DNA of 64,000 bases from Heterodontus francisci (Eukaryota). The notes under the pieces are model-generated. The model was not told where the DNA came from. It did not search any database and saw only the letters and a list, made by a program, of their open reading frames with translations. Position numbers and translations under genes: made by a program. Positions 1 through 64,000 of the stretch are shown piece by piece (within the stretch, counting starts at the first letter, position 1; each line of letters begins with the position of its first letter). Where the stretch lies: the NCBI RefSeq assembly GCF_036365525.1, contig NC_090399.1:66830862-66894861 (forward strand), written 5' to 3'.

Positions 1-1245
1 CCTGACCTCCTCCTCTTTATCCCCCTCCTCTTCCTGCCTCCTCCTCCTCCTCTTCTTGCCTCCTTCTCTTCTCCCTGCCTCCTCCTCTTCTCCTCTTCCT
101 GCCTCGTCCTCCTCTTGACCAGCTCCTCTTCCTGCCTCTCCTCTCCTTCCTTCTCCTCTTCTTCACCTCTTTTCCTGACACCTCCTCTTCTTCTTCCTCC
201 TCCTCCTCCTCTTATTCCTCCTCCTCTCCTCTTCTTCTTCCTGCCTCCCCCTCATCCGGCCTCCTCCTCTTCCTGCCTCCTGCTTTGTCCTCCTCCTCTT
301 CCTTCCTCCTCCTATACCTCCTCCTCCTGCCTCCTCCTATACCTCCTCCTCCTCTTCCTGCCTCCTCCTCCTCTTCCTGCCTCCCCCTCATCCTGCCTCC
401 TCTTCTCCTCCTCCTCTTCCTGCCTCCTCCTCCTCTTCTTTCCTGCCTCCTCTTCCTTCCTGCCTCATCTTCTTCCTGCCTCCTCCTCTTTTCCCTGCCT
501 CCTCCTCTTCTCCCTGCCTCCTCCTCTTCTCCCTGCCTCCCCCTCCTCTTCCTGCACTCTGCACTTCCTGCCTCCTCCTCTTCCTGCCTCCTCCTCTTCC
601 TGCCTCCTCATCTTTCTGCCTCATCTTCTCCTCCTCTTCTCCTCTTCCTGCCTCCGCCTCTTCTCCTCCTCCTCCTGCCTCGTCCTCTTCTGCTCCTCCT
701 CATCTCCTCCTCCTCCTCCTCTCCTTCCTCCTCCTCTTCTTCCTCCCCCCTCCTCTTCTTCCCCCTCTTCCTGCCTACTCCACTTCCTGCCTCCTCCTCT
801 TCTCCTCCTACCCTTCCTGTCTCCTGCTCTTCTTCCACCTCCTCTCACTGACTTCTCATCTTCTTCCTCCCCTCTTCCTGCCTGATCCTCTTCCACTTCC
901 TCCCACTCTTCCTGCCTCCTCTTCATCCTCCGCCTCTTCCTGCCTCCTCCCCTTCCTGCCTCCTCCCCTTCTCCTCCTCCTCTTCTCCTCCTTCTCTTCT
1001 TGCCTCCTCCCCTTCCTGCCTCCTCCTCTTCTCCTCCACCTCTTCCTGTCTCATCTTCCTGCATCCTCCTCTTCCTTCCTCCTCCTCTTCCTCTCCTCCT
1101 ACTACCTCCCCCTCTTCTTCCCCCTCCTCCTTTTTGCCTCCTCCTCATCCTGTCTCCTCCTCTTCTCCTCCTCCTCTTCCTGCTTCCTCCTCCTTCGCTT
1201 CCTGCCTCCTCCTCTATTTCCTCCTCCTCCTCATCCTGCCTCCTC
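1..1245. repeat. Degenerate (CCT/CTT)n polypyrimidine low-complexity tract, in the intron downstream of the MHC alpha2 exon
   Basis: Almost purely C/T on the + strand with recurring cctcctcctcttcctg; it produces the Pro/Ser/Leu and Glu/Arg/Gly ORFs. Confidence 0.95.
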
Positions 1246-1274
1246 ACCATCCCCACAATAACACCACTGTCTGC

Positions 1275-2419
1275 CCCTCACCCACTTTCAGTCCTGCTCC
1301 CTGCACTCACTTGCCGACTCTCAGCACCCCCACTCCCCACTCACTCACTCTCAGTTCCCCTCCCTCCCACTCTCAGTTCCCCCCACTCACCCACTCTCAG
1401 TTCCCCCATCCACTCACCGACTCTCAATCCTGCCCCCCGCCCTCAATTGCCAACTCTCAATACCTCCACTCCATACTCACTCACCTACTCTCAGTTCTGC
1501 CCCTCACTCACCCACTCTCATCCCCCCCGCCCACTCATCCACTCTCAGCCCTCTCCCTGCCCTCACCTGCCAACTCTCAGTACCCCCACTCACTCACTCA
1601 CTCTCAATCCTGCCCCCCCACCCTCACTTGCCGACTCTCAGTGCCCCCACTCACTCACCCACTCTCAGGCCTGCTCCCCGCCCTCACCTGCCGACTCTCA
1701 GTGCCATCACTCCCCACTCACTCACCCACTCTCAGTCCTGTCCCTCGCCCTCACTTGCCGACTCTCAGTACCCTCACTCACTCACCCACTCTCAGTCCCC
1801 CTGCCCACTCACCCACTTTCAGTCCTGCCCTCTCCGCCCTCACTCGCCGACTCTTAGTGCCCCCACTCACTCACCCACTCTCAATCCTGCCCCCCCACCC
1901 TCACTTGCCGACTCTCAGTGCCCCCACTCACTCACCCACTCTCAGTCCTGCTCCCCGCCCTCACCTGCCGACTCTCAGTGCCATCACACCCCACTCACTC
2001 ACCCACTCTCAGTCCTTTCCCTCGCCCTCACTTGCCGACTCTCAGTACCCCCACTCACTCACCCACTCTCAGTCCCCCTGCCCACTCACCCACTTTCAGT
2101 CCTGCCCTCTCAGCCCTCACTCGCCGACTCTTAGTGCCCCCACTCACTCACCCACTCTCAGTCCTGTCTCCCACCCTCACTTGCCGACTCTCAGTACCCC
2201 CACTCCCCGCCCACTCACCCACTCTCAGTCCTGCCCCCCGCCCTCACTCGTCGACTCTCAGTACCCCTACTTCCCGCCCACTCACCCACTCTCAGTCCTG
2301 CCCCCCGCCCTCACCTGCCGACTCTCAGTACCCCCACTCCCCGCCCACTCATCCACTCTCAGTCCTGCCCCCCGCCCTCACTTGCCGACTCTCAGTACCA
2401 CCACTCCCCACTCACTCAC
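1275..2419. repeat. ~58-63-bp minisatellite abutting the alpha2 splice donor, with an internal 277-bp duplication
   Basis: Unit resembles cccactctcagtcctgccccccgccctcacttgccgactctcagtacccccactcactca. Marker variants gtgccatcac (1701/1978) and ctcttagtgc (1851/2128) recur 277 bp apart. Confidence 0.9.
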
Positions 2420-2692
2420 CCGGTCTCAGTTCGTTCTCTCCAGGTTTCAGGAATTCATTCAGCCAGGCGATGCACTCCTGCTCCAGGTAATCCTTCCACC
2501 GCTGGTTCCTGGCAGTGTCTCTGTCCCACTCCTGTTTGGTCAGCACCATGAATGGTGCCACTGCGACCCACACCATGTTCTCTTTGTCTCATACGATGGG
2601 ATCCTTCCCGTCCCAGCCATCTTGATAAAACCCCCAGGTACTCCCATCTTCCCGCAGCTCACAGCCGTACACTGTCTGGAGTATGTGAATCC
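2420..2692 (-). pseudogene. MHC class I heavy chain alpha2-domain exon with in-frame stop
   Basis: Manual translation: (G)[89 protein letters not shown]. Class I motifs YGC, WDGKD, TK..W and YL...C..WL are present. Acceptor ttgacag, donor gtgagt, 273 bp, phase 1/1; TGA at 2591-2589. Confidence 0.93.
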
Positions 2693-2699
2693 CTGTCAA

Positions 2700-2900
2700 T
2701 CAAACACACACAGCCATTCAGAGCCCTCTCCACCACGTTCAAACAGATAGCCAGTCAGAGCCCCCACCGCCAATCAAACTGTCAATCAACCACACAGCCA
2801 ATCAGACTGAGACCCCGACAATCCTCCACTGACAGCCAAACACAGCCTGGCCCAGAGAGCCCACCCTCCCCGCAATGTCAATCAAAGACAGCCAATCAGG
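2700..2900. repeat. Old degenerate repeat carrying the (a)cagccaatcaga motif; continues at ~3965-4178 and ~4972-5090
   Basis: About ten variants of acagccaatcaga spaced roughly 40-90 bp apart, interrupted by LINE/Penelope insertions. Confidence 0.6.
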
Positions 2901-2901
2901 G

Positions 2902-3380
2902 GAGGTGAGAGTGACTGCCCTTGACATCAAGGCAGCATTTGACTGAATACGGCATCAAGCAGCCCCAGCAAAACTGGAGTCAATGGGAATCAGGCAGAAA
3001 ACCTACCGCTGGCTGGAGCCATACCTAGCACAAAGGAAGATGGTTGTGGTTGTTGGAGGTCAATCATCTGAGCTCCAGGACATCACTGCAGGAGTTCCTC
3101 AGGGTAGTGTCCTAGGCCCAAACATCTTCAGCTGCTTCATCAATGACCTTCCTTCAATCATAAGGTCAGAAGTGGAGATGTTCACATTTGATTGCACAAT
3201 GTTCAGCACCATTCGTGACTCCTCAGATACTGAAGCAGTCCGTGTAGAAATGCAGCAAGACCTGGACAATATCCAGGCTTGGGCTGATAAGTGGCACACA
3301 AGTGCCAGGCAATGACCATCTCCAACAAGAGCATATCTAACCATTTCCCCCTGATGTTCACAAGCATTACCATCGCTGAA
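2902..3380 (+). mobile_element. CR1-clade LINE reverse-transcriptase fragment
   Basis: ORF 2983-3315 contains GVPQGSVLGP.IF..FINDL, a degenerate FADD (MFTFD) and QQDLDNIQAWADKW; upstream is EVRVTALDIKAAFD. Confidence 0.92.
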
Positions 3381-3381
3381 A

Positions 3382-3925
3382 AGGGGGAGCCTGTCATGCT
3401 CTGAAATGATCAAACTCAATGTTCAGTCCGGCAGGTTGTAGCAACTGAATATTGAGTTTAATAATTTCAGAGCATGTCAGGCCCCACCCCCCCACCCGAT
3501 TTATTTTCAGTTTTTTTTTCTTTTTATTTTATTTTAGTTTGTTTCATAATTCATTTTTCTTACCATATGCCTGCCCACTCTTTTTTCATGTTTGAGCTTG
3601 GGACCAGGCTGTTCAGTTTTCTGTCAATTAACACCCTCTCTGCACTAACACTTTGTCTTTTACCACACCATTAACATACCGTTTGCCTTTGCTCCATGAC
3701 CTTCTGGTCAGTTATTCTCTGTGACCTTGTCCTATCAGCACCATCTCTTTGGTTATCTCTTGCCCCCCACCAACCCCCGCTTTACTTGCTCAAAATCTAT
3801 TACATTTCTAGCCAATGCAAATTCTGATGAAGGGTCACTGACCTGAAACGTTAATTCTGCTTCTCTCTCCACAGACGTTGTCAGATCTGCTGAGTATTTC
3901 CAGCACTTCTTGTTTTTGTTAACAA
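3382..3925 (+). mobile_element. Penelope-like element 3' fragment with a short inverted 5' piece (~3382-3440)
   Basis: Similar in inverted orientation to 4179-4650. catgctctgaaat...atttcagagcatg forms an inverted junction, and the fragment ends in the hammerhead/tail segment. Confidence 0.75.
3817..3860 (+). ncRNA. Minimal type I hammerhead ribozyme motif (Penelope pLTR type)
   Basis: gcaaatt CTGATGA a gggtca c tgacct GAAA cgtt aattctgc: CUGAUGA and GAAA cores, hairpin II, palindromic ACGU helix III, and flanking helix I aatt/aatt. Confidence 0.65.
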
Positions 3926-4178
3926 AAACAGTGCCTGGCTCACACTTACCCCATCGTCTCCCCACTGGCAATCAAACATACACAGCCAATCAGAGGTCCC
4001 ATGTCAAACTCATACACAGCCAGAGGTCCCATGGCAAACACACACAACCAATCAGAACACTGCCCGCAGCGAACCACCCTCCACAGACTGTCAATAAAAG
4101 AACACCAAATCAGATCCTGGTGCACAGGGACCACAGCCACTCACCAACAACTTTTAATCAAACATACAGCCAATCAGA

Positions 4179-4971
4179 AATGAAAACAAGAAATGCTGGA
4201 ACCACTCAGCAGGTCTGGCAGCATCTGTGGAAAGAGAAGCAGAGTTAACGTTTTGGGTCAGTGACCCTTCTTCGGAACGAGCAACTATTAGAAATGTCAA
4301 AGGTTATAAGCAAGTGAGCCGGGGGTGGGGCAAGAGATAACAAAAGAGAAGGTGTAGATTGGACAAGGCCACAAGGCTGACCAAGAGATCATGGAGCAAA
4401 GGCAAACAATATGTTAATGGTGTGTTGAAAGACAAAGCATTAGTACAGATAGGGTTTTAACGAACTGAAGATTGAACAGCAGCAAGTACAAACATGAAAA
4501 AAAAACAGTGGGTAAGCAAACTAAACAAACTACGATGAAATGAAATAAACAAAAGAAAAAAAGTTGTAAAAAATGTAAAAAAGAAAAATAACTAAAAATA
4601 AAAGTAAAATGGGGGGCCCGTCATGCTCTGAAATGATTGAACGCAATGTTCAGTCCGGCAGGCTGCAGTGTGCCTAATCGGAAAATGAGATGCTGTTCCT
4701 CGACCTTGCGTTGATGTTCAGTGGAAAACTGCAGCAAGCTCAGGATAGAGATGTGCACATGAGAGCAGAGGGGAGTGTTGAAATGGCAAGCAACCGGAAG
4801 CTCAGGGTCCTGCTTGTGGACTGATATTTGCCAGTTCTGAAGAAGGGTCACTGACCCGAAACGTTAACTCTGCTTCTCTCTCCACAGATGCTGTAAGACC
4901 TGCTGAGTATTTCCAGCATTTCTTGTTTTTATTTCAGATTTCCAGCATCCGCAGTATTTTGCTTTTATTAT
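4179..4971 (-). mobile_element. 5'-truncated Penelope-like element (GIY-YIG endonuclease C-terminus + 3' UTR) with inverted terminal copy (~4825-4971) and candidate 15-bp TSD
   Basis: ORF 4621-4851 PVACHFN..CSH...RKVEEQHLIFRLGTLQPAGLN resembles the PLE endonuclease C-terminus. 4180-4280 and 4830-4930 are inverted repeats. atacagccaatcaga flanks both ends (4164-4178, 4972-4986). Confidence 0.82.
4833..4869 (+). ncRNA. Minimal type I hammerhead ribozyme motif (Penelope pLTR type)
   Basis: agtt CTGAAGA a gggtca c tgaccc GAAA cgtt aact: intact cores, hairpin II, helix I agtt/aact. Confidence 0.65.
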
Positions 4972-5235
4972 ATACAGCCAATCAGAGCCTGGACCACAAA
5001 GACCCCCAACCTCCCACCAAGTCAAACTCACAGCCAATCAAAGCACAGAGCACGTAGAATTTCCCTCCCTCAACTGCCAATCAGAGCACGGTTCACAGAG
5101 AACCCAGAGGTTAGGGGTGATGAGGGAGTGGGCGGAGCCACCCGGATCACCGTGACCCCGGGTCACGTACCCCCACCCGCTCCTAGTCTGAGGCCCCATT
5201 CCATGCCCTGATCCCCGAGAGGGGGGATGACTCAC

Positions 5236-5496
5236 CGGCTGACTGGTTGTTCCGTTTCATGAGGGTCTGAATCTGGGCCTTTGCAGTCTGCTCCCAAATC
5301 CGCAGCCTCTGTGTCTGTTCCTGCCAGAAATCAGGACCCTGACTCTCCGCCATCCACAGCTGCCGAAAGGTCGCCTTCTGAAGGTTGCAATCGTAGTAAT
5401 CAAACTGAGCCTCATCCACATAACCGACAGAAAAAATCTCTGGGAGACCGGGAATCGGGGTCATTGAGGTAAAGGAAAACCGGAGCGAATGAAAGC
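5236..5496 (-). pseudogene. MHC class I heavy chain alpha1-domain exon (open frame; same probable pseudogene as the alpha2 exon)
   Basis: (G)FHSLRFSFTSMTPIPGLPEIFSVGYVDEAQFDYYDCNLQKATFRQLWMAESQGPDFWQEQTQRLRIWEQTAKAQIQTLMKRNNQSA, with HSLR, VGYVD, GPDFW and the NQS glycosylation site. Acceptor tctctgcgtttcag, donor gtgagt, 261 bp, phase 1/1. Confidence 0.95.
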
Positions 5497-5504
5497 CTGA
5501 AACG

Positions 5505-6137
5505 CAGAGAGAGAGAGACATCAGGGCATGAACCCCAAAACATCAACCCCAAAGAGAGAGAGACATCAGGGCATGAACCCCAAAACATCAACCTCAGAGA
5601 GAGAGAGAGAGAAACATCAGGGCATGAACCCCAAAACATCAACCCCACAGAGAGAGAGACATCAGGGCATGAACCCCAAAACATCAACCCCACAGAGAGA
5701 GAGACATCAGGGCATGAACACCAAAACGTCAACCCCAGAGAGAGAGAGAGAGACATCAGGGCACGAACCCCAAAACATCAACCCCAAAGAGAGAGACATC
5801 AGGGCATGAACCCCAAAACATCAACCCCAAAGAGAGAGACATCAGGGCATGAACCCCAAAACATCAACCCCAAAGAGAGAGAGAGAGACATCAGGGCATG
5901 AACCCCAAAACATCAACCCCACAGACAGAGAGACATCAGGGCATGAACCCCAAAACATCAACCCAACAGAGAGAGAGAGAGACATCAGGGCATGAACACC
6001 AAAATATCAACCCCAGAGAGAGAGACATCAGGGCAGGAACGCCAAAAAATCAACCCCACAGAGAGAGAGAGACATTAGGGCATGAACCCCAAAACATCAA
6101 CCCCAGAGAGAGAGAGAGACATCAGGGCATGAACCCC
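5505..6137. repeat. ~43-51-bp minisatellite (~14 copies) with variable (GA)n, abutting the alpha1 acceptor
   Basis: Unit (ga)n catcagggcatgaaccccaaaacatcaacccc. Confidence 0.95.
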
Positions 6138-6530
6138 TGATTCCTATCGACTCCAGTTTTGCTAGGGCTCCTTGATGCCGTACTCGGTCAAATGCTGCCT
6201 CGATGTCAAGGGCAGTCACTCTCACCTCGTCCCTGGAGTTCAGCTGTTTTGTCCATGATTGGGCCAAGGCTGTAATGAGGTCAGGAGCTGAGTGGCCCTG
6301 GTGGAACCCAAACTGAGTGTCACTGAGCAGGTTATTGCTGAGCATGTGGCGCTTGATGGCACTGTCAATGACACCTTCCATCACTGATGATTAAGAGTGG
6401 ACTGATAGGGCGGTAATTGGCTGGGTTGGATTTGTCCTGCTGTTTTGTGGACAGGACGTGCCTGGGCAATTTTCCACGTTGTTGGGTAGATATCAGTGTT
6501 GTAGCTGTACTGGAACAGCTTGACTTGGGG
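6135..6530 (-). mobile_element. CR1-clade LINE ORF2 fragment (N-terminal RT region)
   Basis: Minus-strand ORFs give NPANYRPIS and LLSDTQFGF.QGHSAPDL...DEVRVTALDIEAAFDRV. Confidence 0.92.
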
Positions 6531-6554
6531 ATTCGATAATTCAAGACATTTGTA

Positions 6555-6685
6555 AAGTTTATTTCCACACAACCTCAAACTCCACAACTCTCCTACTGTC
6601 TGCTGACTCACAGATTGTTTCTATTTGAATTGACACTAATATACCATTGAACCAATCAGAATTGAGGTGTCTGAATTTATTACCA
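6555..6685 (+). promoter_or_regulatory. MHC class I-type proximal promoter: ISRE-like, S, X1/X2, degenerate Y, CCAAT
   Basis: agtttatttcc (6556-6566); S core AACCT (6571-6575); 16-bp gap; X1X2-like cctactgtctgcTGACTCA (6592-6610); 15-bp gap; Y-like tgaATTGA (6626-6633); CCAATCAG (6652-6659). It lies upstream of, and in the same orientation as, the leader exon. Confidence 0.6.
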
Positions 6686-6729
6686 TCAGCACTGGGCAAA
6701 GTGCACAGACACAAAGCACTGAGTGCAAA

Positions 6730-6925
6730 GAGACAATCCAGGAAGCACAGGATCCACACTGGGCACAGAGATACAGTCCAGCAGGAACAGGATCCACACT
6801 GGGCACAGAGACACAGTCCAGCAGGAACAGGATCCGCAGTGGGCACAGAGACACAGTCCAGGAGGCACAGGATCCGCAGTGGGCACAGAGACACAGTCCA
6901 GCAGGAACAGGATCCGCAGTGGGCT
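6730..6925. repeat. 40-bp tandem repeat (5 copies) between promoter and ATG
   Basis: caggatcc recurs at 6748, 6788, 6828, 6868 and 6908. Confidence 0.92.
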
Positions 6926-6991
6926 CAGCTCACGAACAGAGGGAAGACAGCTTCTTCGGAAAGGATTGCCAGCCCATCGAGCGAAAAAGCA

Positions 6992-7040
6992 ATGATTGGA
7001 CTGACAGTGCTCGTCCTTCTGTATGGAGGGGTCTCTGCAG
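6992..7040 (+). CDS. MHC class I signal-peptide (leader) exon
   Basis: ATG-initiated MIGLTVLVLLYGGVSA+G, 49 nt, phase-1 donor cag|gtgggt. It is a hydrophobic leader ending in a VSA cleavage site and resembles shark class I leaders as I recall them. Confidence 0.82.
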
Positions 7041-7051
7041 GTGGGTGCTCG

Positions 7052-10000
7052 GGTCTGAGAGGGTCTCAATGCCAGGCTGAGTACTGGGGTATTAACCCTC
7101 AGTCATTGGGTATTGGGGTCTGAGCGGGTTTCTGTGCCAGGCTGTGTACTGGGGTATTAACCCTCAGTCAGTGGGTAATGGGGACTGAGAGGGTCTCAGT
7201 GCCAGGCTGTGTACTGGGGTATTAACCCTCAGTCAGTGGGTAATGGGGTCTGAGCGGGTTTCGGTGCCAGGCTGTGTATTGGGGTATTAACCCTTGATCA
7301 GTTGGTATTGGGGTCTGACCGGTTTTGGTGCCAGGCTGTGTATTGGGGTATTAACCCTTGATCAGTTGGTATTGGGGTCTGACCGGTTTTGGTGCCAGGC
7401 TGCGTACTGGGGTATTAACCCTTGGTCAGTTGGTATTGGGGTCTGAGCGGATTTTGGTGCCAGGCTGTGTACTGGGGTATTAACCCTTGGTCAGTTGGTA
7501 TTGGGGTCTGAGCGGGTTTTGGTGCCAGGCTGTGTACTGGGGTATTAACCCTTGGTCAGTTGGCATTGGAGTCTGAGCGGGTTTTGGTGCTAGGCTGTGC
7601 ACTGGGGTATTAACCCTTGGTCAGTTGGTATTAGGGTCTGAGCGGGTTTTGGTGCCAGGCTGTGCACTGGGGTATTAACACTTGGTCAGTTGGTATTGGG
7701 GTCTGAGCGGGTTTTGGTGCCAGGCTGTGTACTGGGGTATTAACCCTTGCTCAGTTGGTATTGGGGTCTGAGCGGGTTTTGGTACCAGGCTGTGTACTGG
7801 GTTATTAACCCTTGGTCAGTTGGTATTGGAGTCTGAGCGGGTTTTGGTGCCAGGCTGTGCACTGGGGTATTAACCCTTGGTCAGTTGGTATTAGGGTCTG
7901 AGCGGGTTTTGGTGCCAGGCTGTGTACTGGGGTATTAACACTTGGTCAGTTGGGATTGGGGTCTGAGCGGGTTTTGGTGCCAGGCTGTGTACTGGGTTAT
8001 TAACCCTTGGTCAGTTGGTATTGGAGTCTGAGCTGGTTTTGGTGCCAGGCTGTGCACTGGGGTATTAACACTTGGTCAGTTGGTATTAGGGTCTGAGCGG
8101 GTTTTGGTCCCAGGCTGTGTACTGGGGTATTAACACTTGGTCAGTTGGTATTGGGGTCTGAGCGGGTTTTGGTGCCAGGCTGTGTACTGGGGTATTAACA
8201 CTTGGTCAGTTGGTATTGGGGTCTGAGCGGGTTTTGGTGCCAGGCTGTGTACTGGGGTATTAACCCTTGGTCAGTTGGTATTGGGGTCTGAGCGGTTTTG
8301 GTGCCAGGCTGTGTACTGGGGTATTAACCCTTGGTCAGTTGGTATTAGGGTCTGAGCGGGTTTTGGTGCCAGGCTGTGTACTGGGGTATTAACACTTGGT
8401 CAGTTGGTATTAGGGTCTGAGCGGGTTTTGGTGCCAGGCTGTGTACTGGGGTATTAACACTTGGTCAGTTGGTATTGGGGTCTGAGCGGGTTTTGGTGCC
8501 AGGCTGTGTACTGGGGTATTAACACTTGGTCAGTTGGTATTAGGGTCTGAGCGGGTTTTGGTGCCAGGCTGTGTACTGGGGTATTAACACTTGGTCAGTT
8601 GGTATTGGGGTCTGAGCGGGTTTTGGTGCCAGGCTGTGTACTGGGGTATTAACCCTTGGTCAGTTGGTATTGGGGTCTGAGCGGTTTTGGTGCTAGGCTG
8701 TGTACTGGGGTATTAACCCTTGGTCAGTTGGTATTGGGGTCTGAGCGGGTTTGGTGCCAGGCTGTGTACTGGGATATTAACCCTTGGTCAGTTGGTATTG
8801 GGGTCTGAGCGGGTTTGGTGCCAGGCTGTGTACTGGGATATTAACACTTGGTCAGTTGGTATTGGGGTCTGAGCGGGTTTGGTGCCAGGCTGTGTACTGG
8901 GATATTAACCCTTGGTCAGTTGGTATTAGGATCTGAGCGGGTTTGGTGCCAGGCTGTGTACTGGGGTATTAACCTTTGGTCAGTTGGTATTGGGGTCTGA
9001 GCGGGTTTGGTGCCAGGCTGTGTACTGGGGTATTAACCTTTGGTCAGTTGGTATTAGGGTCTGAGCGGGTTTGGTGCCAGGCTGTGTACTGGGGTATTAA
9101 CCCTTGGTCAGTTGGTATTGGGGTCTGAGCGGGTTTGCGCCAGGCTGTGTACTGGGGTATTAACCCTTGGTCAGTTGGTATTGGGGTCTGAGCGGGTTTG
9201 GTGCCAGGCTGTGTACTGGGGTATTAACCCTTGGTCAGTTGGTATGGGGGACTGAGAGGGTCTCAGTGCCAGGCTGTGTACTGGGGTATTAACCCTCAGT
9301 CAGTGGGTAATGGGGTCTGAGCGGGTTTCGGTGCCAGGCTGTGTATTGGGGTATTAACCCTTGATCAGTTGGTATTGGGGTCTGACCGGTTTTGGTGCCA
9401 GGCTGTGTATTGGGGTATTAACCCTTGATCAGTTGGTATTGGGGTCTGACCGGTTTTGGTGCCAGGCTGCGTACTGGGGTATTAACCCTTGGTCAGTTGG
9501 TATTGGGGTCTGAGCGGATTTTGGTGCCAGGCTGTGTACTGGGGTATTAACCCTTGGTCAGTTGGTATTGGGGTCTGAGCGGGTTTTGGTGCCAGGCTGT
9601 GTACTGGGGTATTAACCCTTGGTCAGTTGGCATTGGAGTCTGAGCGGGTTTTGGTGCTAGGCTGTGCACTGGGGTATTAACCCTTGGTCAGTTGGTATTA
9701 GGGTCTGAGCGGGTTTTGGTGCCAGGCTGTGCACTGGGGTATTAACACTTGGTCAGTTGGTATTGGGGTCTGAGCGGGTTTTGGTGCCAGGCTGTGTACT
9801 GGGGTATTAACCCTTGCTCAGTTGGTATTGGGGTCTGAGCGGGTTTTGGTACCAGGCTGTGTACTGGGTTATTAACCCTTGGTCAGTTGGTATTGGAGTC
9901 TGAGCGGGTTTTGGTGCCAGGCTGTGCACTGGGGTATTAACCCTTGGTCAGTTGGTATTAGGGTCTGAGCGGGTTTTGGTGCCAGGCTGTGTACTGGGGT

Positions 10001-11470
10001 ATTAACACTTGGTCAGTTGGGATTGGGGTCTGAGCGGGTTTTGGTGCCAGGCTGTGTACTGGGTTATTAACCCTTGGTCAGTTGGTATTGGAGTCTGAGC
10101 TGGTTTTGGTGCCAGGCTGTGCACTGGGGTATTAACACTTGGTCAGTTGGTATTAGGGTCTGAGCGGGTTTTGGTCCCAGGCTGTGTACTGGGGTATTAA
10201 CACTTGGTCAGTTGGTATTGGGGTCTGAGCGGGTTTTGGTGCCAGGCTGTGTACTGGGGTATTAACACTTGGTCAGTTGGTATTGGGGTCTGAGTGGGTT
10301 TTGGTGCCAGGCTGTGTACTGGGGTATTAACCCTTGGTCAGTTGGTATTGGGGTCTGAGCGGTTTTGGTGCCAGGCTGTGTACTGGGGTATTAACCCTTG
10401 GTCAGTTGGTATTAGGGTCTGAGCGGGTTTTGGTGCCAGGCTGTGTACTGGGGTATTAACACTTGGTCAGTTGGCATTAGGGTCTGAGCGGGTTTTGGTG
10501 CCAGGCTGTGTACTGGGGTATTAACACTTGGTCAGTTGGTATTGGGGTCTGAGCGGGTTTTGGTGCCAGGCTGTGTACTGGGGTATTAACACTTGGTCAG
10601 TTGGTATTAGGGTCTGAGCGGGTTTTGGTGCCAGGCTGTGTACTGGGGTATTAACACTTGGTCAGTTGGTATTGGGGTCTGAGCGGGTTTTGGTGCCAGG
10701 CTGTGTACTGGGGTATTAACCCTTGGTCAGTTGGTATTGGGGTCTGAGCGGTTTTGGTGCTAGGCTGTGTACTGGGGTATTAACCCTTGGTCAGTTGGTA
10801 TTGGGGTCTGAGCGGGTTTGGTGCCAGGCTGTGTACTGGGATATTAACCCTTGGTCAGTTGGTATTGGGGTCTGAGCGGGTTTGGTGCCAGGCTGTGTAC
10901 TGGGATATTAACCCTTGGTCAGTTGGTATTGGGGTCTGAGCGGGTTTGGTGCCAGGCTGTGTACTGGGATATTAACCCTTGGTCAGTTGGTATTAGGATC
11001 TGAGCGGGTTTGGTGCCAGGCTGTGTACTGGGGTATTAACCTTTGGTCAGTTGGTATTGGGGTCTGAGCGGGTTTGGTGCCAGGCTGTGTACTGGGGTAT
11101 TAACCTTTGGTCAGTTGGTATTAGGGTCTGAGCGGGTTTGGTGCCAGGCTGTGTACTGGGGTATTAACCCTTGGTCAGTTGGTATTGGGGTCTGAGCGGG
11201 TTTGCGCCAGGCTGTGTACTGGGGTATTAACCCTTGGTCAGTTGGTATTGGGGTCTGAGCGGGTTTGGTGCCAGGCTGTGTACTGGGGTATTAACCCTTG
11301 GTCAGTTGGTATGGGGGTCTGAGCGGGTTTGGTGCCAGGCTGTGTACTGGGGTATTAACCCTTGGTCAGTTGGTATTGGGGTCTGAGCGGGTTTTGGTGC
11401 CAGGCTGTGTACTGGGGTATTAATCCTTGGTCAGTTGGTATTGGGGTCTGAGCGGGTTTGGTGCCAGGCT
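7052..11470. repeat. 64-65-bp minisatellite (~68 copies) with a 2067-bp internal tandem duplication
   Basis: Unit ggtgccaggctgtgtactggggtattaacccttggtcagttggtattggggtctgagcgggtttt. Rare variants recur at +2067 (7184/9251; 9134/11201). Confidence 0.97.
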
Positions 11471-11479
11471 GGGATGGAG

Positions 11480-11990
11480 ACAGGAACACAACAACAGGAG
11501 GCTTTTCAGCCCCTCCAGTCTCTCCCACCAGCCAATGAAATCATGTCTGATCTGTACCTTTGCTCGCTATCCCGTGACATCCTTTCCAAATAAAAAGCTA
11601 ACAATGGAGAGAGAAACAACGTTCTGATAAAAGGTTATTGAACTGAAACATTCACTCTGTTTCTCTCTCTCTACAGATACTGCTAAACCTGCTGGGTATT
11701 TCCAGCATCTTCTATTTTTATTTCAGATTTCCAACATTCTCAGTATTTTGCTTCTGTAAAAATCTCTCTCAGTTTTGAAAGGTTCAGTTGAGCCTCCACA
11801 TCCACAGCCTTGGGGGGGGGGAGGGGGGGTGGGGGGGTGGGGAGGGGGAAGAGTTCCCGATATCCACTGCTCTTTATATGGGATATTGTTTCCTGAATTC
11901 CCTCCGAAATGGCCTCGCTCGAATTTTAAGATGATGCCTCTTGTTCCTGATTCGAGCACCAGAGGGAGCAGTTTCTCACTATCGAATGCT
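11480..11990 (-). mobile_element. CR1-like LINE 3' end (ORF2 C-terminus + 3' UTR), interrupted by a Penelope-derived tail and a G-run
   Basis: Frameshifted minus-strand remnants of the SRTRGH.LK and WNSLP motifs; 11480-11590 resembles the reverse complement of a CR1 3' UTR. Confidence 0.65.
11605..11760 (+). mobile_element. Degenerate Penelope-derived tail/pLTR fragment
   Basis: Homologous to 4833-4965 (ctgataaaaggttattgaactgaaacatt...tccagcatcttctatttttatttcagatttcc). Confidence 0.7.
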
Positions 11991-12100
11991 TGGTATTAAT
12001 TGTCGATTAATTGAGGGTTTAATTATGTTCAGTTTACGGGTATTACTTCAGAATTCAATTGTGCTGCTGTAAATTCTGGTGAGGCAGAGACTTTCCACAT

Positions 12101-13740
12101 TCAGACCCTGCAGAGATACCTGTACGTCGAGCCTCCTCCTTCAGACCCTGCAGAGATACCTGTACGTTGAACCTCTTCCTTCAGACGCTGCAGAGATACC
12201 TGTACGTCGAGCCTCGTCCTTCAGGCCCTGCAGAGATACCTGTACGTTGAGCCTCCTCCTTCAGACGCTGCAGAGATACCTGTACGTTGAGCCTCCTTCT
12301 TCAGACGCTGCAGAGATACCTGTACGTCGAGCCTCGTCCTTCAGGCCCTGCAGAGATACCTGTACGTTGAGCCTCCTGCTTGAGGCCCTGCAGAGATACC
12401 TGTACATCGGGCCTCCTCCTTCAGACCCTGCAGAGATACCTGTACGTCGAGTCTCCTCCTTCAGACCCTGCAGAGATACCTGTACGTCGAGCCTCGTCCT
12501 TCAGACCCTGTAGAGATACCTGTACGTCGAGTCTCCTCCTTCAGACCCTGCAGAGATACCTGTACGTCGAGTCTCCTCCTTCAGACCCTGCAGAGATACC
12601 TGTACGTCGAGCCTCGTCCTTCAGACCCTGCAGAGATACCTGTACGTCGAGTCTCCTCCTTCAGACCCTGCAGAGATACCTGTACGTCGAGTCTCCTCCT
12701 TCAGACCCTGCAGAGATACCTGTACGTCGAGTCTCCTTCTTCAGACGCTGCAGAGATACCTGTACGTCGAGCCTCGTCCTTCAGACCCTGTAGAGATACC
12801 TGGACATCGAGCCTCCTCCTTCAGACCCTGCAGAGATACCTGTACGTCGAGTCTCCTCCTTCAGACCCTGCAGAGATACCTCTACGTCGAGCCTCGTCCT
12901 TCAGACCCTGTAGAGATACCTGTACGTCGAGTCTCCTCCTTCAGACCCTGCAGAGATATCTGTACGTCGGGCCTCCTCCTTCAGACCCTGTAGAGATACC
13001 TGTACGTCGAGTCTCCTCCTTCAGACCCTGCAGAGATACCTGTACGTCGAGTCTCCTCCTTCAGACCCTGCAGAGATACCTCTACGTCGAGCCTCGTCCT
13101 TCAGACCCTGCAGAGATACCTGTACGTCGAGTCTCCTCCTTCAGACCCTGTAGAGATACCTGTACGTCGAGTCTCCTCCTTCAGACCCTGCAGAGATACC
13201 TGTACATCGAGCCTCCTCCTTCAGGCCCTGTAGAGATACCTGTACGTCGAGTCTCCTCCTTCAGACCCTGCAGAGATACCTGTACATCGAGCCTCCTCCT
13301 TCAGGCCCTGTAGAGATACCTGTACGTCGAGCCTCCTCCTTCAGACCCTGCAGAGATACCTGTACGTCGAGCCTCCTCCTTCAGACCCTGCAGAGATACC
13401 TGTACGTCGAGTCTCCTCCTTCAGACCCTGCAGAGATACCTGTACGTCGAGTCTCCTCCTTCAGACCCTGCAGAGATACCTGTACGTCGAGTCTCCTCCT
13501 TCAGACCCTGTAGAGATACCTGTACGTCGAGTCTCCTCCTTCAGACCCTGCAGAGATACCTGTACATCGAGCCTCCTCCTTCAGGCCCTGTAGAGATACC
13601 TGTACGTCGAGTCTCCTCCTTCAGACCCTGTAGAGATACCTGTACGTCGAGTCTCCTCCTTCAGACCCTGTAGAGATACCTGTACATCGGGCCTCCTCCT
13701 TCAGACCCTGCAGAGATACCTGTACGTCGAGCCTCCTCCC
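12101..13740. repeat. 40-bp minisatellite (~41 copies)
   Basis: Unit tcagaccctgcagagatacctgtacgtcgag(c/t)ctcctcct with an exact 40-bp period. Confidence 0.97.
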
Positions 13741-13984
13741 AGATGGTGTGCAATTGCAACATTTTTCGTCCAGAGCTCCTGTTTGAAAACCTGGGGGTCT
13801 TCCTGTGGGAAGTGCAGGAGCTGCCTGTCTTTTACCAGGAACAGATCAGGATCTGGAACATGGACACCTCCAGCCGGAGCAGTCTCCCATCAGGAATGAT
13901 GGATCTACTCCAGGAACTGCTGCTCAGGAATCTGCACCTCCATCAGTCCAGGTTCATGTGGCTGGGAGGGAGAGGGCACAGGCT

Positions 13985-14665
13985 GGCAAGGTGACCAGAG
14001 TCAGGGGTGTACTGGAAGGTGGAGGAGAGGGCACTGCCAAGGTGACCAGAGTCAAGGATTGACTGGATGGTGGAGGAGAGGGCACTGCCAAGGCGACCAG
14101 AGTCAGGGGTGTACTGGATGGTGGAGGAGAGGGCACTGCCAAGGTGACCAGAGTCAGGGGTGTACTGGAAGGTGGAGGAGAGGGCACTGCCAAGGTGACC
14201 AGAGTCAAGTGTGTACTGGATGGTGGAGGAGAGGGCACTGCCAAGGTGACCAGAGTCAGGGGTGTACTGGATGGTGGAGGAGAGGGCACTGCCAAGGCGA
14301 CCAGAGTCAGGGGTGTACTGGAAGGTGGAGGAGAGGGCACTGCCAAGGTGACCAGAGTCAGGGGTGTACTGGATTGTGGAGGAGAGGGCACTGCCAAGGT
14401 GACCAGAGTCAGGGGTGTACTGGATGGTGGAGGAGAGGGCACTGCCAAGGTGACCAGAGTCAGGGACAGACTGGATGATGGAGGAGAGGGCACTGCCAAG
14501 GTGACCAGAGTCAGGCACAGACTGGATGGTGGAGGAGAGGGCACTGCCAAGGTGACCAGACAAGGGTGTACTGTATGGTGGAGGAGAGGGCACTGCCAAT
14601 GTGACCAGAGTCAGGGACAGACTGGATGGTGGAGGAGAGGGCACTAGCTCCAAGGTGACCAGAGT
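13985..14665. repeat. 51-bp minisatellite (~13 copies)
   Basis: Unit caaggtgaccagagtcaggggtgtactggatggtggaggagagggcactgc; period 51 (13988, 14039, ...). Confidence 0.96.
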
Positions 14666-14727
14666 TGGGCGGTGTCCACCAGTGAGGGCGTGCATGCGGT
14701 GTCTGCCCGAGAGGGAGCGAGTGAGGC

Positions 14728-17700
14728 ATTATCGACAGGGACTCTGTGTTGTGTTGTGTTTATTTACAGGGACTCTGTGTTGGGGGTTATCTACAGGGAC
14801 TCTGTGTTGTTTTGGGGTTTATTTACAAAGGCTCTGTGTTGTGTTGGGTTTATTTACAGGGGCTGAGTGTTGTGTTGGGGTTATTTACAGGGGCTCTGTG
14901 TTGTTTTGGAGTTTATTTACAGCGGCTCTGTGTTGTGTTGTCTTGGGGTTTATTTACAGGGGCTCTGTGTTGTGTTGGAGTTTATTTACAGGGACTCTGT
15001 GTTGTGTTGTCTTGGGGTTTATTTACAGGGGCTCTGTGTTGTTTTGGAGTTTATTTACAGCGGCTCTGTGTTGTGTTGTCTTGGGGTTTATTTACAGGGG
15101 CTCTGTGTTGTGTTGGAGTTTATTTACAGGGACTCTGTGTTGTGTTGTCTTGGGGTTTATTTACAGGGGCTCTGTGTTGTGTTGGAGTTTATTTACAGGG
15201 ACTCTGTGTTGTGTTGTGTTGGGGTTTATTTACAGGGGCTCTGAGTTGTGTTGGGGTTTATTTACAGGGACTCTGTTGTGTTGGGGTTTATTTACAGGGG
15301 CTCTGTGTTGTGTTGGGGTAAATTTACAGGGGCTCTGTGTTGTGTTGGAGTTTATTTACAGGGACTCTGTTGTATTGGGGTTTATTTACAGGGGCTCTGT
15401 GTTGTGTTGGGGTAAATTTACAGGGGTTCTGTGTTGTGTTGGGGTTTATTTACAGGGGCTCTGTGTTGTGTTGGGGTTTATTTACAAAGGCTCTGTGTTG
15501 TGTTGGGTTTATTTACAGGGGCTGTGTGTTGTGTTGGGGTTATTTACAGGGGCTCTGTGTTGTTTTGGGGTTTATTTACAAAGGCTCTGTGTTGATTTGG
15601 GTTTATTTACAGGGGCTCTGTGTTGTGTCGGTGTTTATTTACAGGGGCTCTGTGTTGTGTTGGGGTTTATGTACAGGGGCTCTGTGTTGTGTTGGGGTTT
15701 ATTTACAGGGGCTCTGTGTTGTTTTGGGGTTTATTTACAAAGGCTCTGTGTTGTGTTGGGTTTATTTCCATGGGCTGTGTGTTGTGTTGGGGTTATTTAC
15801 AGGGGCTCTGTGTTGGTTTGGGGTTTATTTACAGGGGCTCTGTGTTGTGTTGGAGTTTATTTACAGGGACTCTGTTGTGTTGTGTTGGGGTTTATTTACA
15901 GGGGCTCTGAGTTGTGTTGGGGTTTATTTACAGGGACTCTGTTGCGTTGGGGTTTATTTACAGGGGCACTGTGTTGTATTGTTTTGAGGTTTATTTACAG
16001 GGGCTCTGAGTTGTGTTGGGGTTTATTTACAGGGACTCTGTTGTGTTGGAGTTTATTTACAGGGACTCTGTGTTGTTTTGGGGTAAATTTACAGGGGTTC
16101 TGTGTTGTGTTGGGGTTTATTTACAGGGGCTCTGTTGCGTTGGGGTTTATTTACAGGGTCTCTTTGTTGTGTTGTGTTGGGGTTTATTTACAGGGGCTCT
16201 GTGTTGTGTTGGGGTTTACTTACAGGGGCTCTGTGTTGTGTTGTTTTGGGGTTTATTTCCATGGGACTCTGTGTTGTGTTGGGGTTTATTTACAGGGGCT
16301 CTGTGTTGTGTTGTTTTGGGGTTTATTTCCAGGGACTCTGTGTTGTGTTGGGGTTTATTTACAGGGACTCTGTGTTGTGTTGGGGTTTATTTACAGGGGA
16401 CCTGTGTTGTGTTGGGGTTTATTTACTGCTGATCTGTGTTGTGTTGTTTTGGGGTTTATTTACAGGGGCTCTGTGATGTGTTGGGGTTTATTTGCAAGGA
16501 CTCTGCTGTTTTGGGGTCTATTTCCAGGGACTCTGTGTTGTGTTGGAGTTTATTTACAGGGACTCTGTGTTGTGTTGGGGTTTATTTACAGGGGACCTGT
16601 GTTGTGTTGGGGTTTATTTACTGCTGATCTGTGTTGTGTTGTTTTGGGGTTTATTTCCAGGGACTCTGTGTTGTGTTGGGGTTTATTTGCAAGGACTCTG
16701 CTGTTTTGGGGTCTATTTCCAGGGACTCTGTGTTGTGTTGGAGTTTATTTACAGGGACTCTGTGTTGTGTTGGGGTTTATTTACAGGGGACCTGTGTTGT
16801 GTTGGGGTTTATTTACTGCTGATCTGTGTTGTGTTGTTTTGGGGTTTATTTACAGGGGCTCTGTGATGTGTTGGGGTTTATTTACAGGGACTCTGTTGTG
16901 TTGGGGTTTATTTACAGGGGCTCTGTGTTGTGTTGTGGTTAATTATCAGGGGTTCTGTGTTGTGTTGGGGTTTATTTACAGGGGCTCTGTGTTGTGTTGT
17001 GTTGGAGTTTATTTACAGGGACTCTGTTGTGTTGGGGTTTATTTACAGGGGCTCTCTGTTGTGTTGGGGTTTATTTACAGGGGCTCTGTGTTGTGTTGTG
17101 GTTTATTCACAGAGACTCTGTGTTGTGTTGGGGTTTATTTACAGGGGCTCTGTGTTGTGTTGTTTTGGGGTTTATTTACAGGGGCTCAGTGTTGTGTTGG
17201 GGTTTTTTTTACAGGGACTCTGTGTTGTGTTGTGTTGGGGTTTATTTACAGGGGCTCTGTGTTGTGTTGTTTTGGGGTTTATTTCCAGGGGCTCTGTGTT
17301 GCGTTGGGGTTTATTTACAGGGTCTCTGTTGTGTTGGGGTTTATTTACAGGGGCTCTGTGTTGTGTTGTGTTGGGGTTTATTTACAGGGGCTCTGTGTTG
17401 TGTTGGGGTTTATTTACAGGGGCTCTGTGTTGTGTTGTTATGGGGTTTATTTACAGGGGCTCTGTTTTGTGTTGTGTTGGGGTTTATTTACAGGGGCTCT
17501 GTGTTGTGTTGCGGTTTATTTACAGGGGCTCTGTGTTGTGTTGGGGTTTATTTACAGGGACTCTGTTGTGTTGGGGTTTATTTACATGGGCTCTGTGTTG
17601 TGTTGTTTTGGGGTTTATTTACAGGGGCTCTGTGTTGTGTTGGGGTTTATTTACAGGGACTCTGTTGTGTTGGGGTTTATTTACAGGGGCTCTGTGTTGT

Positions 17701-62700: not shown

Positions 62701-64000
62701 GTTTTGGGGTTTATTTCCAGGGGCTCTGTGTTGCGTTGGGGTTTATTTACAGGGTCTCTGTTGTGTTGGGGTTTATTTACAGGGGCTCTGTGTTGTGTTG
62801 TGTTGGGGTTTATTTACAGGGGCTCTGTGTTGTGTTGGGGTTTATTTACAGGGGCTCTGTGTTGTGTTGTTATGGGGTTTATTTACAGGGGCTCTGTTTT
62901 GTGTTGTGTTGGTCATTATTTACAGGGGCTCTGTGTTGTGTTGGGGTTTATTTACAGGGGCTCTGTGTTGTGTTGTTTTGGGGTTTATTTACAGGGGCTC
63001 TGTGTTGTGTTGTGGTTTATTTACAGGGGCTCTGTGTTGTGTTGGGGTTTATTTACAGGGACTCTGTTGTGTTGGGGTTTATTTACATGGGCTCTGTGTT
63101 GTGTTGTTTTGGGGTTTATTTACAGGGGCTCTGTGTTGTGTTGGGGTTTATTTACAGGGACTCTGTTGTGTTGGGGTTTATTTACAGGGACTCTGTTGTG
63201 TTGGGGTTTATTTACAGGGGCTCTGTGTTGTGTTGTGGTTTATTTACAGGGGCTCTGTGTTGTGTTGGGGTTTATTTACAGGGACTCTGTTGTGTTGGGG
63301 TTTATTTACAGGGGCTCTGTTTTGTGTTGTGTTGGGGTTTATTTACAGGGGCTCTGTGTTGTGTTGTTTTGGGGTATATTTACAGGGGCTCTGTGTGGTG
63401 TTGTGTTGGGGTTTATTTACAGGGGCTCTGTGTTGTTTTGGGGTTTATTTACAAAGGCACTGTGTTGTGTTGGGTTTATTTCCATGGGCTGTGTGTTGTG
63501 TTGGGGTGATTTCCAGGGATCTGTGTTGGTTTGGGGTTTATTTACAGGGGCTCTGTGTTGTGTTGGAGTTTATTTACAGGGACTCTGTTGTGTTGTGTTG
63601 GGGTTTATTTACAGGGGCTCTGAGTTGTGTTGTGTTGGAGTATATTTACAGGGACTGTGTGTTGTGTTGGGGTTTATTTACAGGGACTCTGTTGTGTTGC
63701 GGTTTATTTACAGGGGCTCTGTGTTGTGTTGGGGTAAATTTACAGGGGCTCTGTGTTGTGTTGGGGTTTATTTACAGGGAATCTGTTGTGTTGGGGTTTA
63801 TTTACAGGGGCTCTGTGTTGTTTTGGGGTAAATTTACAGGGGTTCTGTGTTGTGTTGGGGTTTATTTACAGGGGCTCTGTTGTGTTGGGGTTTATTTACA
63901 GGGGCTCTTTGTTGTGTTGTGTTGGGGTTTATTTACAGGGCCTCTGTGTTGTGTTGGGGTTTATTTACAGGGGCTCTGTGTTGTGTTGTTTTGGGGTTTA
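14728..64000. repeat. Large G/T-rich satellite array of 30/32/37-bp monomers (~1,500 copies) with kb-scale higher-order repeats; runs off the window
   Basis: Consensus GGGGTTTATTTACAGGGGCTCTGTGTTGTGTT, with length variants from +/-TG and +GTGTT. Uninterrupted for >49 kb. Confidence 0.99.

Follow-up and report, generated by a model that had tools for sequence, protein, structure and literature searches.

The MHC class I parts that lie in opposite orientations at positions 2420-7040 of the window (the whole stretch analysed, 64,000 nt of Heterodontus francisci, GCF_036365525.1, NC_090399.1, 66,830,862-66,894,861, forward strand) belong to two genes, not one. We read the locus, with good confidence, as the head of a plus-strand class I gene, here gene D, beside a dead inverted copy of part of the neighbouring gene A, the latter likely dropped into the seam of the tandem duplication that comprises gene D and its paralog B. 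The stretch that holds the minus-strand alpha1/alpha2, 4.9 kb long, is by its sequence an inverted copy of part of gene A, cut at both ends; it is a duplicated (unprocessed) class I pseudogene fragment, that is, ordinary gene debris. The unusual part of the locus is the repeat-filled intron 1 of gene D, which is likely spliced. Exon positions and phases, the stop codon, the truncation at either end, the continuity of the array, the junction microhomology, and the paralogous relation of the fragment to A and of the D flanks to B were all read directly from the assembly.

Results

The minus-strand exons are a truncated copy of gene A

The pseudogene alpha1 exon (5236..5496, minus strand) is open, keeps an AG acceptor and a GT donor, and is 96.1% identical to gene A in nucleotides and 91% in amino acids. 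Pfam, run on a stop-free part of the frame, recognizes MHC_I (E 3.7e-15), and the best PDB match is 6lup_A (E 1.8e-21). The alpha2 exon (2420..2692, minus strand; 97.4% nucleotide identity to gene A) carries an in-frame TGA at 2591-2589, where gene A has Leu. The initial annotation had seen the two exons in correct order on the minus strand, as we also find (5496..5236 and 2692..2420), and had overlooked this stop. Intron 2 between them (2693..5235, minus strand; 2,543 bases versus 1,741 in A) is homologous to that of A with extra repeat insertions, at 91-92.5% by BLAST with gaps, while the 3.9% divergence from a gap-broken global alignment is a rough figure. Across the exons, 13 of the 16 codons changed relative to A are replacements or the stop.

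At its outer ends the copy breaks off within satellite. The last ~640 bases of intron 1 (5497..6137, minus strand) consist of a 45-bp satellite, a stump of the 54-kb array of A, and outside gene A this A-type satellite is confined to 5505-6137; the start of intron 3 (1276..2419, minus strand) is A-type G-rich satellite, cut off with no alpha3 beyond. The fragment keeps the introns and splice sites of its parent, as intron 2 and the stumps of introns 1 and 3 match A. A minus-strand leader was found neither by a genome-wide DNA search nor by regional BLAST with the leaders of D and A nor by a pattern scan, which gave, from 5497 to the alpha1 of D, no leader-like exon on the minus strand and one on the plus strand; the earlier statement that no minus-strand leader was found upstream of alpha1 is thereby upheld. 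The alpha3 that it had proposed to seek on the minus strand left of the window was not found in 855 kb, nor, besides A's own, was an A-type TM or leader.

Lacking a leader, alpha3 and TM and bearing the alpha2 TGA, the fragment is disabled, and its parent is intact: gene A is open, has four NCBI isoform models, and is represented by spliced RNA-labelled contigs with its letters. All listed spliced alpha1-alpha2 contigs carry the letters of gene A; no spliced fragment-type contig is among the listed pieces, and no model of at least 152 aa was found for the fragment. Most likely, the fragment has no role.

The plus-strand leader heads gene D

The promoter and 5′ UTR of gene D (6531..6991, plus strand) are 95% identical to those of paralog B, with a promoter identity to A of ~68%, contain a 40-bp minisatellite, and are covered from 6895 by an RNA-labelled contig. 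Across ~6531-6740 the sequence can be aligned to the promoters of paralogs A, B and C; conserved words occur at ~6554, 6604 and 6652, which we take to be ISRE-like, TGACTCA and CCAAT, respectively. The leader exon (6992..7040, plus strand; 49 nt, 16 codons plus one base, phase 1, GT at 7041) lies 1,496 bases from the alpha1 acceptor of the fragment, in agreement with the plus-strand promoter and leader annotated about 1.5 kb away, and differs from the leader of A at 5 of 49 bases and from those of B and C at 2 each. The comparison with paralogs that had been proposed therefore assigns the two parts to different sources: the fragment is A-type, and the leader, promoter and unique intron-1 spacers of D are B/C-type.

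The leader is very likely spliced to the alpha1 of gene D (C29:67034034-67034294), which lies 196,132 bases downstream. The initial annotation had seen no plus-strand alpha1 in the next 57 kb, which is true within the window, but the exon is present 196 kb from the leader, beyond the satellite, where a search had been recommended. The leader, alpha1, alpha2, alpha3 and TM of D are open, in frame and bounded by canonical splice sites, and no other leader for this alpha1 was found. The NCBI model XP_067865034.1 (P0001), a prediction built on the same assembly, joins the exact 6992-7040 leader to the alpha1 of D, and in the GenBank protein AAC60349.1 (P0003) an alpha1 of this lineage (74%) follows a C-type leader. 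Among contig pieces from four runs of one sample, possibly the assembled one, in which three RNA labels are guessed and depths in repeats are ignored, the RNA-labelled X5 record 22 shows 0 differences over the 146 bases of 6895-7040, where B differs at 15 and C at 20, and leaves at the donor; the pieces listed for 2300-7110 do not include its remaining 157 bases. The implied pairing of this leader with the minus-strand alpha1 is thus unsupported, as the leader has its own downstream gene. Their phase compatibility (G|GC = Gly1) is correct as to phase 1 but uninformative, because each of the four leaders in the cluster has phase 1; with the actual partner exon the codon is Ala (G|CC).

Gene D is only 57% identical to B in the nucleotides of alpha1 but 95% in alpha3; it therefore did not arise simply by copying B, and its history requires additional events. 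It carries an old alpha1 lineage, found in other shark genera at 63-67%, together with B-like alpha2, alpha3 and TM. A UBA-lineage label for this alpha1 was dropped, the best matches being named class I or class IA. The peptide-end anchor residues, which we number by assumption as Y7, Y59, R84, T143, K146, W147, Y159, W167 and Y171, are kept at 8 of 9 positions in D and at 9/9 in C; position 59 of D is F, as in P0004, a protein named class IA by its source. D lacks the last cytoplasmic exon of B and has ~190 other bases in its place, so it may be decaying.

Satellite fills intron 1 of gene D

The 5′ part of this intron (7041..14734, plus strand) comprises 65-, 40- and 51-bp satellites and unique spacers, one of 628 bp common to B and C and one of 243 bp common to C and absent from B. 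It is followed by the first 49 kb of a ~32-bp satellite array (14735..64000, plus strand) that runs past the window end, totals 188,413 bases and ends at G000:C29:67034008, 25 bases before the alpha1 of D. The array is continuous, with a largest motif gap of at most 52 bases and motif copies of 4,699 versus 0 by strand, and 150/150 of the listed array matches fall at the D locus; no 8-kb word recurs, and 34% of its 500-mers recur exactly, which makes its length uncertain. Its sense strand contains no polyadenylation word and no GTRAG donor, and the intron holds ~5,200 acceptor-like words. The initial annotation had offered, as one of three options, a truncated pseudogene fused to a paralog with a satellite-swollen intron 1; such an abutment is what we find, except that the intron measures 196 kb, not just >57 kb, and that the pseudogene is also truncated at its 3′ side and carries a stop.

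Introns swollen by satellite are typical of this cluster (68% of 855 kb). In all three of the other leader-bearing genes, whose first introns measure 10, 59 and 21 kb, the intron-1 satellite abuts the alpha1 acceptor, and the intronic array lengths differ 10- to 100-fold between neighbouring paralogs. The array of D may have grown later, by ordinary tandem amplification of T/G-rich sequence beside the acceptor, and may be tolerated because its sense strand lacks the polyadenylation word and the GTRAG donor, so that the acceptor-like words would define no exons; we hold this account of growth and tolerance to be an evenly balanced conjecture. A bolder proposal, that an ancient-alpha1 shark gene is spliced correctly across a 188-kb satellite whose length acts as a fast-evolving dial of class I expression, and that the arrays which persist are those whose orientation is free of poly(A) signals, is speculative and unlikely.

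The fragment lies at the seam between paralogs B and D

Left of the fragment, the window begins with the end of a CCT-rich array (1..1245, plus strand), the last part of the 3′ flank of paralog B; the same flank follows gene D, and the 3′ flanks of B and D are collinear as far as this array; to the right, the upstream sequence of D matches that of B from 6138 onward. B-type flanks thus stand on either side of the fragment right up to both junctions, which places it at the seam between the tandem paralogs, ~300 kb from gene A. The left junction (1246..1275) holds ~25-30 bases that fit neither A nor the B/D flank, filler or decayed satellite, which match only themselves genome-wide in a search that skips simple repeats; no microhomology can be assigned there. 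The right junction (6134..6137) is a 4-base microhomology, CCCC, common to the A-type satellite and to the LINE piece upstream of B-type promoters. That piece, a LINE reverse-transcriptase fragment (6138..6530, minus strand; Pfam RVT_1, E 2.3e-8), also occurs upstream of B with 5.6% mismatch and is presumably CR1. The divergence of the fragment from A (2.6-3.9%) overlaps that between B and D (1.3-6.2% over 9 blocks).

The cluster sits on the same contig as ABC_membrane matches at 65.13-65.66 Mb and a proteasome match at 65.90 Mb, of putative gene identity, which may represent the linkage to TAP and PSMB8/9 expected of a classical class Ia gene; the distance from these ABC-membrane and proteasome-subunit matches to several of the class I genes is 0.4-1.9 Mb, with gene C nearer than gene D. 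Genes C and A form a head-to-head pair elsewhere in the cluster. The region analysed for the cluster has an N gap at 66332892, and the alpha3 of gene C would lie to the left of that region.

Discussion

We would give a modest preference to a single replication-based event with both template switches as the origin of the insertion. A fork engaged on the end of the 3′ flank of B could have jumped ~300 kb to an A-type template, replicated 4.9 kb of it in reverse, and finally moved, through the 4-base microhomology, onto the LINE piece that precedes a B-type promoter. FoSTeS/MMBIR templated insertions, as presented in PMC5120786, are alike in the inverted insert from a nearby locus, the junction microhomology and the duplicated flanks, whereas the shark event is old and germline, 3-4% diverged, with microhomology at one of two junctions and with the parental state not in hand.

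Less probable is a history in which a whole inverted A-type gene once lay between B and D and was trimmed by two later separate deletions, one from the intron-1 satellite to the LINE piece and the other from the intron-3 satellite to the CCT array. Both fragment ends lie in or at repeats, the microhomology suits deletion equally well, and the C/A pair provides an existing head-to-head arrangement, with D sharing the 243-bp spacer of C that B lacks. However, no further inverted A-type remnant occurs in 855 kb, and B-type flanks reaching both junctions would need chance in two independent deletions.

It is unlikely that the promoter of D is bidirectional and that non-coding transcription from it runs across the inverted alpha1, which it faces outward from at ~1.1 kb. 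The 125-nt unspliced contig X6 record 30 is identical to the fragment alpha1 at 6 diagnostic sites and would suit such a transcript, but a fragment contig is in the listed pieces of only 1/3 RNA-labelled runs, at depth 6.6; that run has A-type alpha2 only and leaves the leader uncovered, the contig is unstranded, an identical contig would result from carried-over DNA or from conversion of an A allele, and the spliced contigs are all A-lettered.

Misassembly, the third of the earlier options, in which a piece of the other haplotype or of a paralog was joined backwards at a repeat, is very improbable. Both junctions touch repeats, a third of the array 500-mers recur, and the listed contig pieces span neither 6137 nor the left junction, which has no bearing either way. 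Against it, the locus contig is gap-free, with no N between 66.333 and 67.155 Mb, and at the right junction the two sides overlap cleanly by 4 bases, with no long repeat; the fragment has private changes (3-4% from A) and insertions, with no second near-identical copy among the genome matches; it is matched without a difference, also at the stop, by contigs from a DNA-labelled run (e.g., 2370-2634); and the array matches and 8-kb words point to one locus.

A local inversion that turned the promoter and leader away from their own alpha1/alpha2, the first of those options, is hardly credible: the two are phase-compatible and 1.5 kb apart, joining at the donor yields Gly, the residue of gene A, and 2902-2994 and 6136-6228 form a pair of inverted LINE arms (92%), but promoter and leader are closer to B than to A, no A-type 45-bp satellite follows the leader, which heads its own downstream gene, there is no reciprocal breakpoint, and the arms flank alpha1 alone, itself not inverted relative to alpha2. 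As inversion breakpoints the arms were rejected; they predate the junction, because gene A has the intron-2 piece as well and B has the upstream one.

Class I fragments are well known in MHC regions, for example the human HLA fragments. Among the newt class I pseudogenes, which follow birth-and-death evolution in the text of PMC12863176, intron-containing truncated copies of an expressed neighbour with a disabling stop are alike, but the shark piece is exactly alpha1-alpha2, inverted, abuts the promoter of another gene at a duplication seam, and has both ends mapped. In elasmobranchs the Ia-like genes near the Ia gene vary by species, and the MHC-Ia region, which there also has zinc-finger neighbours, resembles ours in several class I genes near ABC-membrane and proteasome-subunit matches; the main text of that source is free of the words intron and pseudogene and does not describe satellite-filled introns or the shark fragment (PMC10751288). 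The divergent alpha1 of D paired with B-like alpha2/alpha3/TM recalls the shuffling of alpha1 lineages in trout UBA, an allelic exchange via a long intron 2 in the text of PMC6523485, whereas the shark case is between paralogs, in one haplotype, with a giant intron 1 and the exchange unmapped. The giant introns of Drosophila Y fertility genes, as given in PMC11207136 and PMC6508621, likewise make a coding gene mostly one intronic satellite that is transcribed through, while the shark intron has 196 kb, not megabases, belongs to a vertebrate immune gene, and gives no sign here of dedicated machinery. No description of this locus, or of satellite-filled class I introns in sharks, was found in the literature covered, mostly non-subscription papers without supplements.

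In conclusion, the puzzle resolves into a pseudogene fragment beside a second gene, and therefore no new mechanism is needed. The locus offers a base-level view of the birth and breakage of class I genes in cartilaginous fish. The satellite within a shark class I gene can exceed 200 kb, and short windows or fragmented assemblies will split or mis-join such genes. Intron 1 of gene D also provides a natural system in which to study how the splicing machinery passes over acceptor-like repeats by the thousand.

The class I cluster around the window

The window is drawn from a genome of 6.0 Gb, and the region analysed around it comprises 854,861 contiguous bases (66.30-67.155 Mb of contig NC_090399.1, here C29), in which the only N run is at 66332892. 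Five alpha1/alpha2 pairs were found in it, those of the MHC class I paralogs C (minus strand), A (plus), B (plus) and D (plus; alpha1 at 67034034, alpha2 at 67039391) and that of the window fragment (minus), together with four leaders, not five, namely those of C, A and B and the one in the window. Tandem arrays occupy 68% of C29:66300001-67154861; tandem-repeat-rich regions are known from shark genomes, according to passages of PMC10620051 and bioRxiv 10.1101/2025.06.08.657570. A different intron is swollen with its own repeat unit in each gene (introns 1 and 3 of A; 1, 3 and 4 of B; 3 of C), and two longer units, both including interspersed repeats, are amplified, a ~3.3-kb CCT-array unit in tandem behind D (C29:67071104-67102840) and, between A and B, a ~6-7-kb unit containing a 33-bp satellite (C29:66622010-66670824).

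On the same contig, ABC-membrane matches at 65.13-65.66 Mb and a proteasome-subunit match at 65.90 Mb fit the elasmobranch class Ia region as outlined in parts of PMC10751288, with TAP and PSMB8/9 as candidate identities only. Genome-wide, 31 of 34 alpha1-like matches lie on C29 over 35 Mb (32-67 Mb), including a near-identical set at 57-63 Mb that occurs also on two small contigs; the contigs other than C29 are C815, C1655 and C130.

The window leader and the satellite intron of gene D

As the initial annotation claimed, the window carries a 49-base phase-1 leader exon (6992-7040, plus strand) preceded by a promoter-like sequence that is conserved among three paralogs and whose motifs we take to be ISRE and CCAAT. 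From 7051 onward, the window is nearly all tandem repeat. Between 5497 and D alpha1, pattern scanning returned one leader-like exon on the plus strand (6992) and none on the minus strand, where a leader had indeed been reported missing. The reported lack of a plus-strand alpha1 holds within the window, but a search past the satellite found one, the D alpha1 at C29:67034034-67034294. The window leader faces D, which has no other leader, and the leader, alpha1, alpha2, alpha3 and TM of D are open and in phase, with Ala at the leader-alpha1 joint.

The NCBI model XP_067865034.1 of Heterodontus francisci, a prediction made on the same assembly, consists of the exact window leader followed by D alpha1, and AAC60349.1, presumably of cDNA origin, joins the C leader to the alpha1 lineage of D. 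Moreover, a 303-base contig in one of three presumed-RNA runs follows 6895-7040 without difference and leaves at the donor, while over these 146 bases B has 15 differences from it and C has 20; its other 157 bases are not among the pieces listed. We infer, with this contig read as far as the donor, that the window leader is spliced to D alpha1.

Arrays make up 195,157 of the 196,132 bases of D intron 1. The ~32-bp satellite of this intron (window 14735-64000, on to C29:67034008) counts 188,413 bases in one orientation and about 5,100 units, although array length is the weakest number here, as 34% of 500-mers and no 8-kb words recur exactly. The largest motif gap is at most 52 bases, and the array ends 25 bases before the D acceptor; when its first 241 bases were compared with the genome, all 150 matches listed (of 212) lay inside the array, with 40 of 119 candidates scored. 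Intron 1 measures 9,952 bases in C, 58,843 in A and 21,037 in B, and because satellite abuts the alpha1 acceptor in these three genes also, D represents the most extreme case of a local pattern. A public prediction already spans this very large D intron. Giant introns filled by satellite are known in Drosophila, as described in PMC11207136.

The sense strand of the array has no AATAAA/ATTAAA, no GTRAG and 5,249 YYYNYAG words, and the antisense strand 4,977 polyadenylation words. Sense polyadenylation words number at most one in all eight large arrays tested, and antisense ones occur in only three of the eight; for this reason, and given few independent units and T/G-rich strands, the bias is not taken as selection. 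Several other intronic arrays are opposite in kind, donor-rich and acceptor-free. By the general rules of splicing, exon definition requires a donor, and the acceptor-like words of the array may fail to define exons for lack of one.

Nature of genes D and A

The genome search revealed a single copy of D alpha1, with the next match at no more than 43% amino acid identity. The exon shares 38-39% with B and C, 66% with a Chiloscyllium protein named class IA, and 63-74% with proteins of three shark genera, while D alpha3 is 95% identical to B in nucleotides. This suggests a mosaic composition for D, in which an old lineage of alpha1 is joined to an otherwise B-like gene, and recalls the alpha1-lineage shuffling of trout described in parts of PMC6523485. 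The last cytoplasmic exon of B (66813835) is missing from D, which has ~190 other bases there (C29:67055105-67055293); in the NCBI model, sequence from downstream supplies an unrelated tail instead. For want of this exon, D is not filed as the classical gene. It keeps eight of nine residues at what we take to be the class I anchor positions. At the same presumed positions A has F7, F59, E146 and F171, and its alpha3 is only 53% identical to that of D; A is likely a nonclassical offshoot. A (C29:66528139-66584140) is spliced in all three presumed-RNA runs.

The minus-strand fragment

The alpha1 (5496..5236) and alpha2 (2692..2420) exons of the fragment lie on the minus strand with canonical splice sites, as initially annotated, but alpha2 also contains an in-frame TGA (2591-2589) at a codon that reads Leu in the closest paralog; this stop had been overlooked. 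Its alpha1 matches Pfam MHC_I at E 3.7e-15, with 6lup_A as best PDB match. The sole close genome match is A, ~300 kb off in the other orientation (96.1% of nucleotides in alpha1, 97.4% in alpha2, 85-92.5% with gaps in intron 2), and 13 of 16 changed codons are replacements or stop. Stumps of A's 54-kb intron-1 satellite (~640 bases) and intron-3 satellite (~1.1 kb) are retained. The 854,861-base region yielded no minus-strand alpha3, for which the initial annotation had suggested a search, and no second A-type leader or A-type TM.

Spliced alpha1-alpha2 contigs carry A letters at all 14 exon sites listed (8 of 10 alpha1 and 6 of 7 alpha2 differences), which identifies A rather than the fragment as the spliced gene. 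A protein search for a fragment product returned only A's four isoform models, which is weak evidence of absence. One presumed-RNA contig of 125 bases and depth 6.6 (run X6, record 30) matches fragment alpha1 exactly at 5310-5434, including six diagnostic sites; a transcript, DNA carry-over or a converted allele are candidate sources.

Origin of the arrangement

The 3′ flanks of B and D remain collinear over ~32 kb as far as a CCT array, which ends at 1245, and from 6138 on, D matches B in the LINE piece upstream of the gene, the promoter and the first intron spacer. The fragment therefore lies at a seam, with B-type 3′ sequence on one side and B-type 5′ sequence on the other. At the right junction (6134-6137) satellite and LINE piece overlap by CCCC, and at the left ~25-30 bases match neither side; divergence is similar for fragment and A (2.6-3.9%) and for B and D (1.3-6.2% over nine blocks). 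The fragment may well have arisen in one replication-based event, which would involve two template switches, a kind of rearrangement summarised in PMC5120786. That a longer inverted A-type gene was trimmed later is a less likely alternative.

Misassembly, one option of the initial annotation, is unlikely: the locus has no gap, the fragment shows divergence of its own, and one DNA-labelled run, possibly from the assembled sample, yields contigs that are exact at 2370-2634 (with the stop), 2606-2926, 3893-4206, 4948-5534 and 6526-6812, although none of the pieces listed crosses 6137. Inversion of one gene, also proposed, is contradicted, since the leader is of one paralog type and the body of another, and the unique intron spacers after the leader are common to B and C only, even though the intron types are related, A intron 1 having two short stretches akin to the 65-bp satellite.

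No account of this locus was found in the main texts and abstracts searched; class I loci may be listed in the supplements of PMC10751288. MHC regions commonly contain pseudogenes and fragments of class I genes, as stated in parts of PMC12863176. In conclusion, the window sequence is genuine and, as the two-gene option had it, combines parts of two genes: an A-type fragment, which is ordinary debris of birth-and-death evolution, and the leader of the class I gene D in front of its very large satellite intron.
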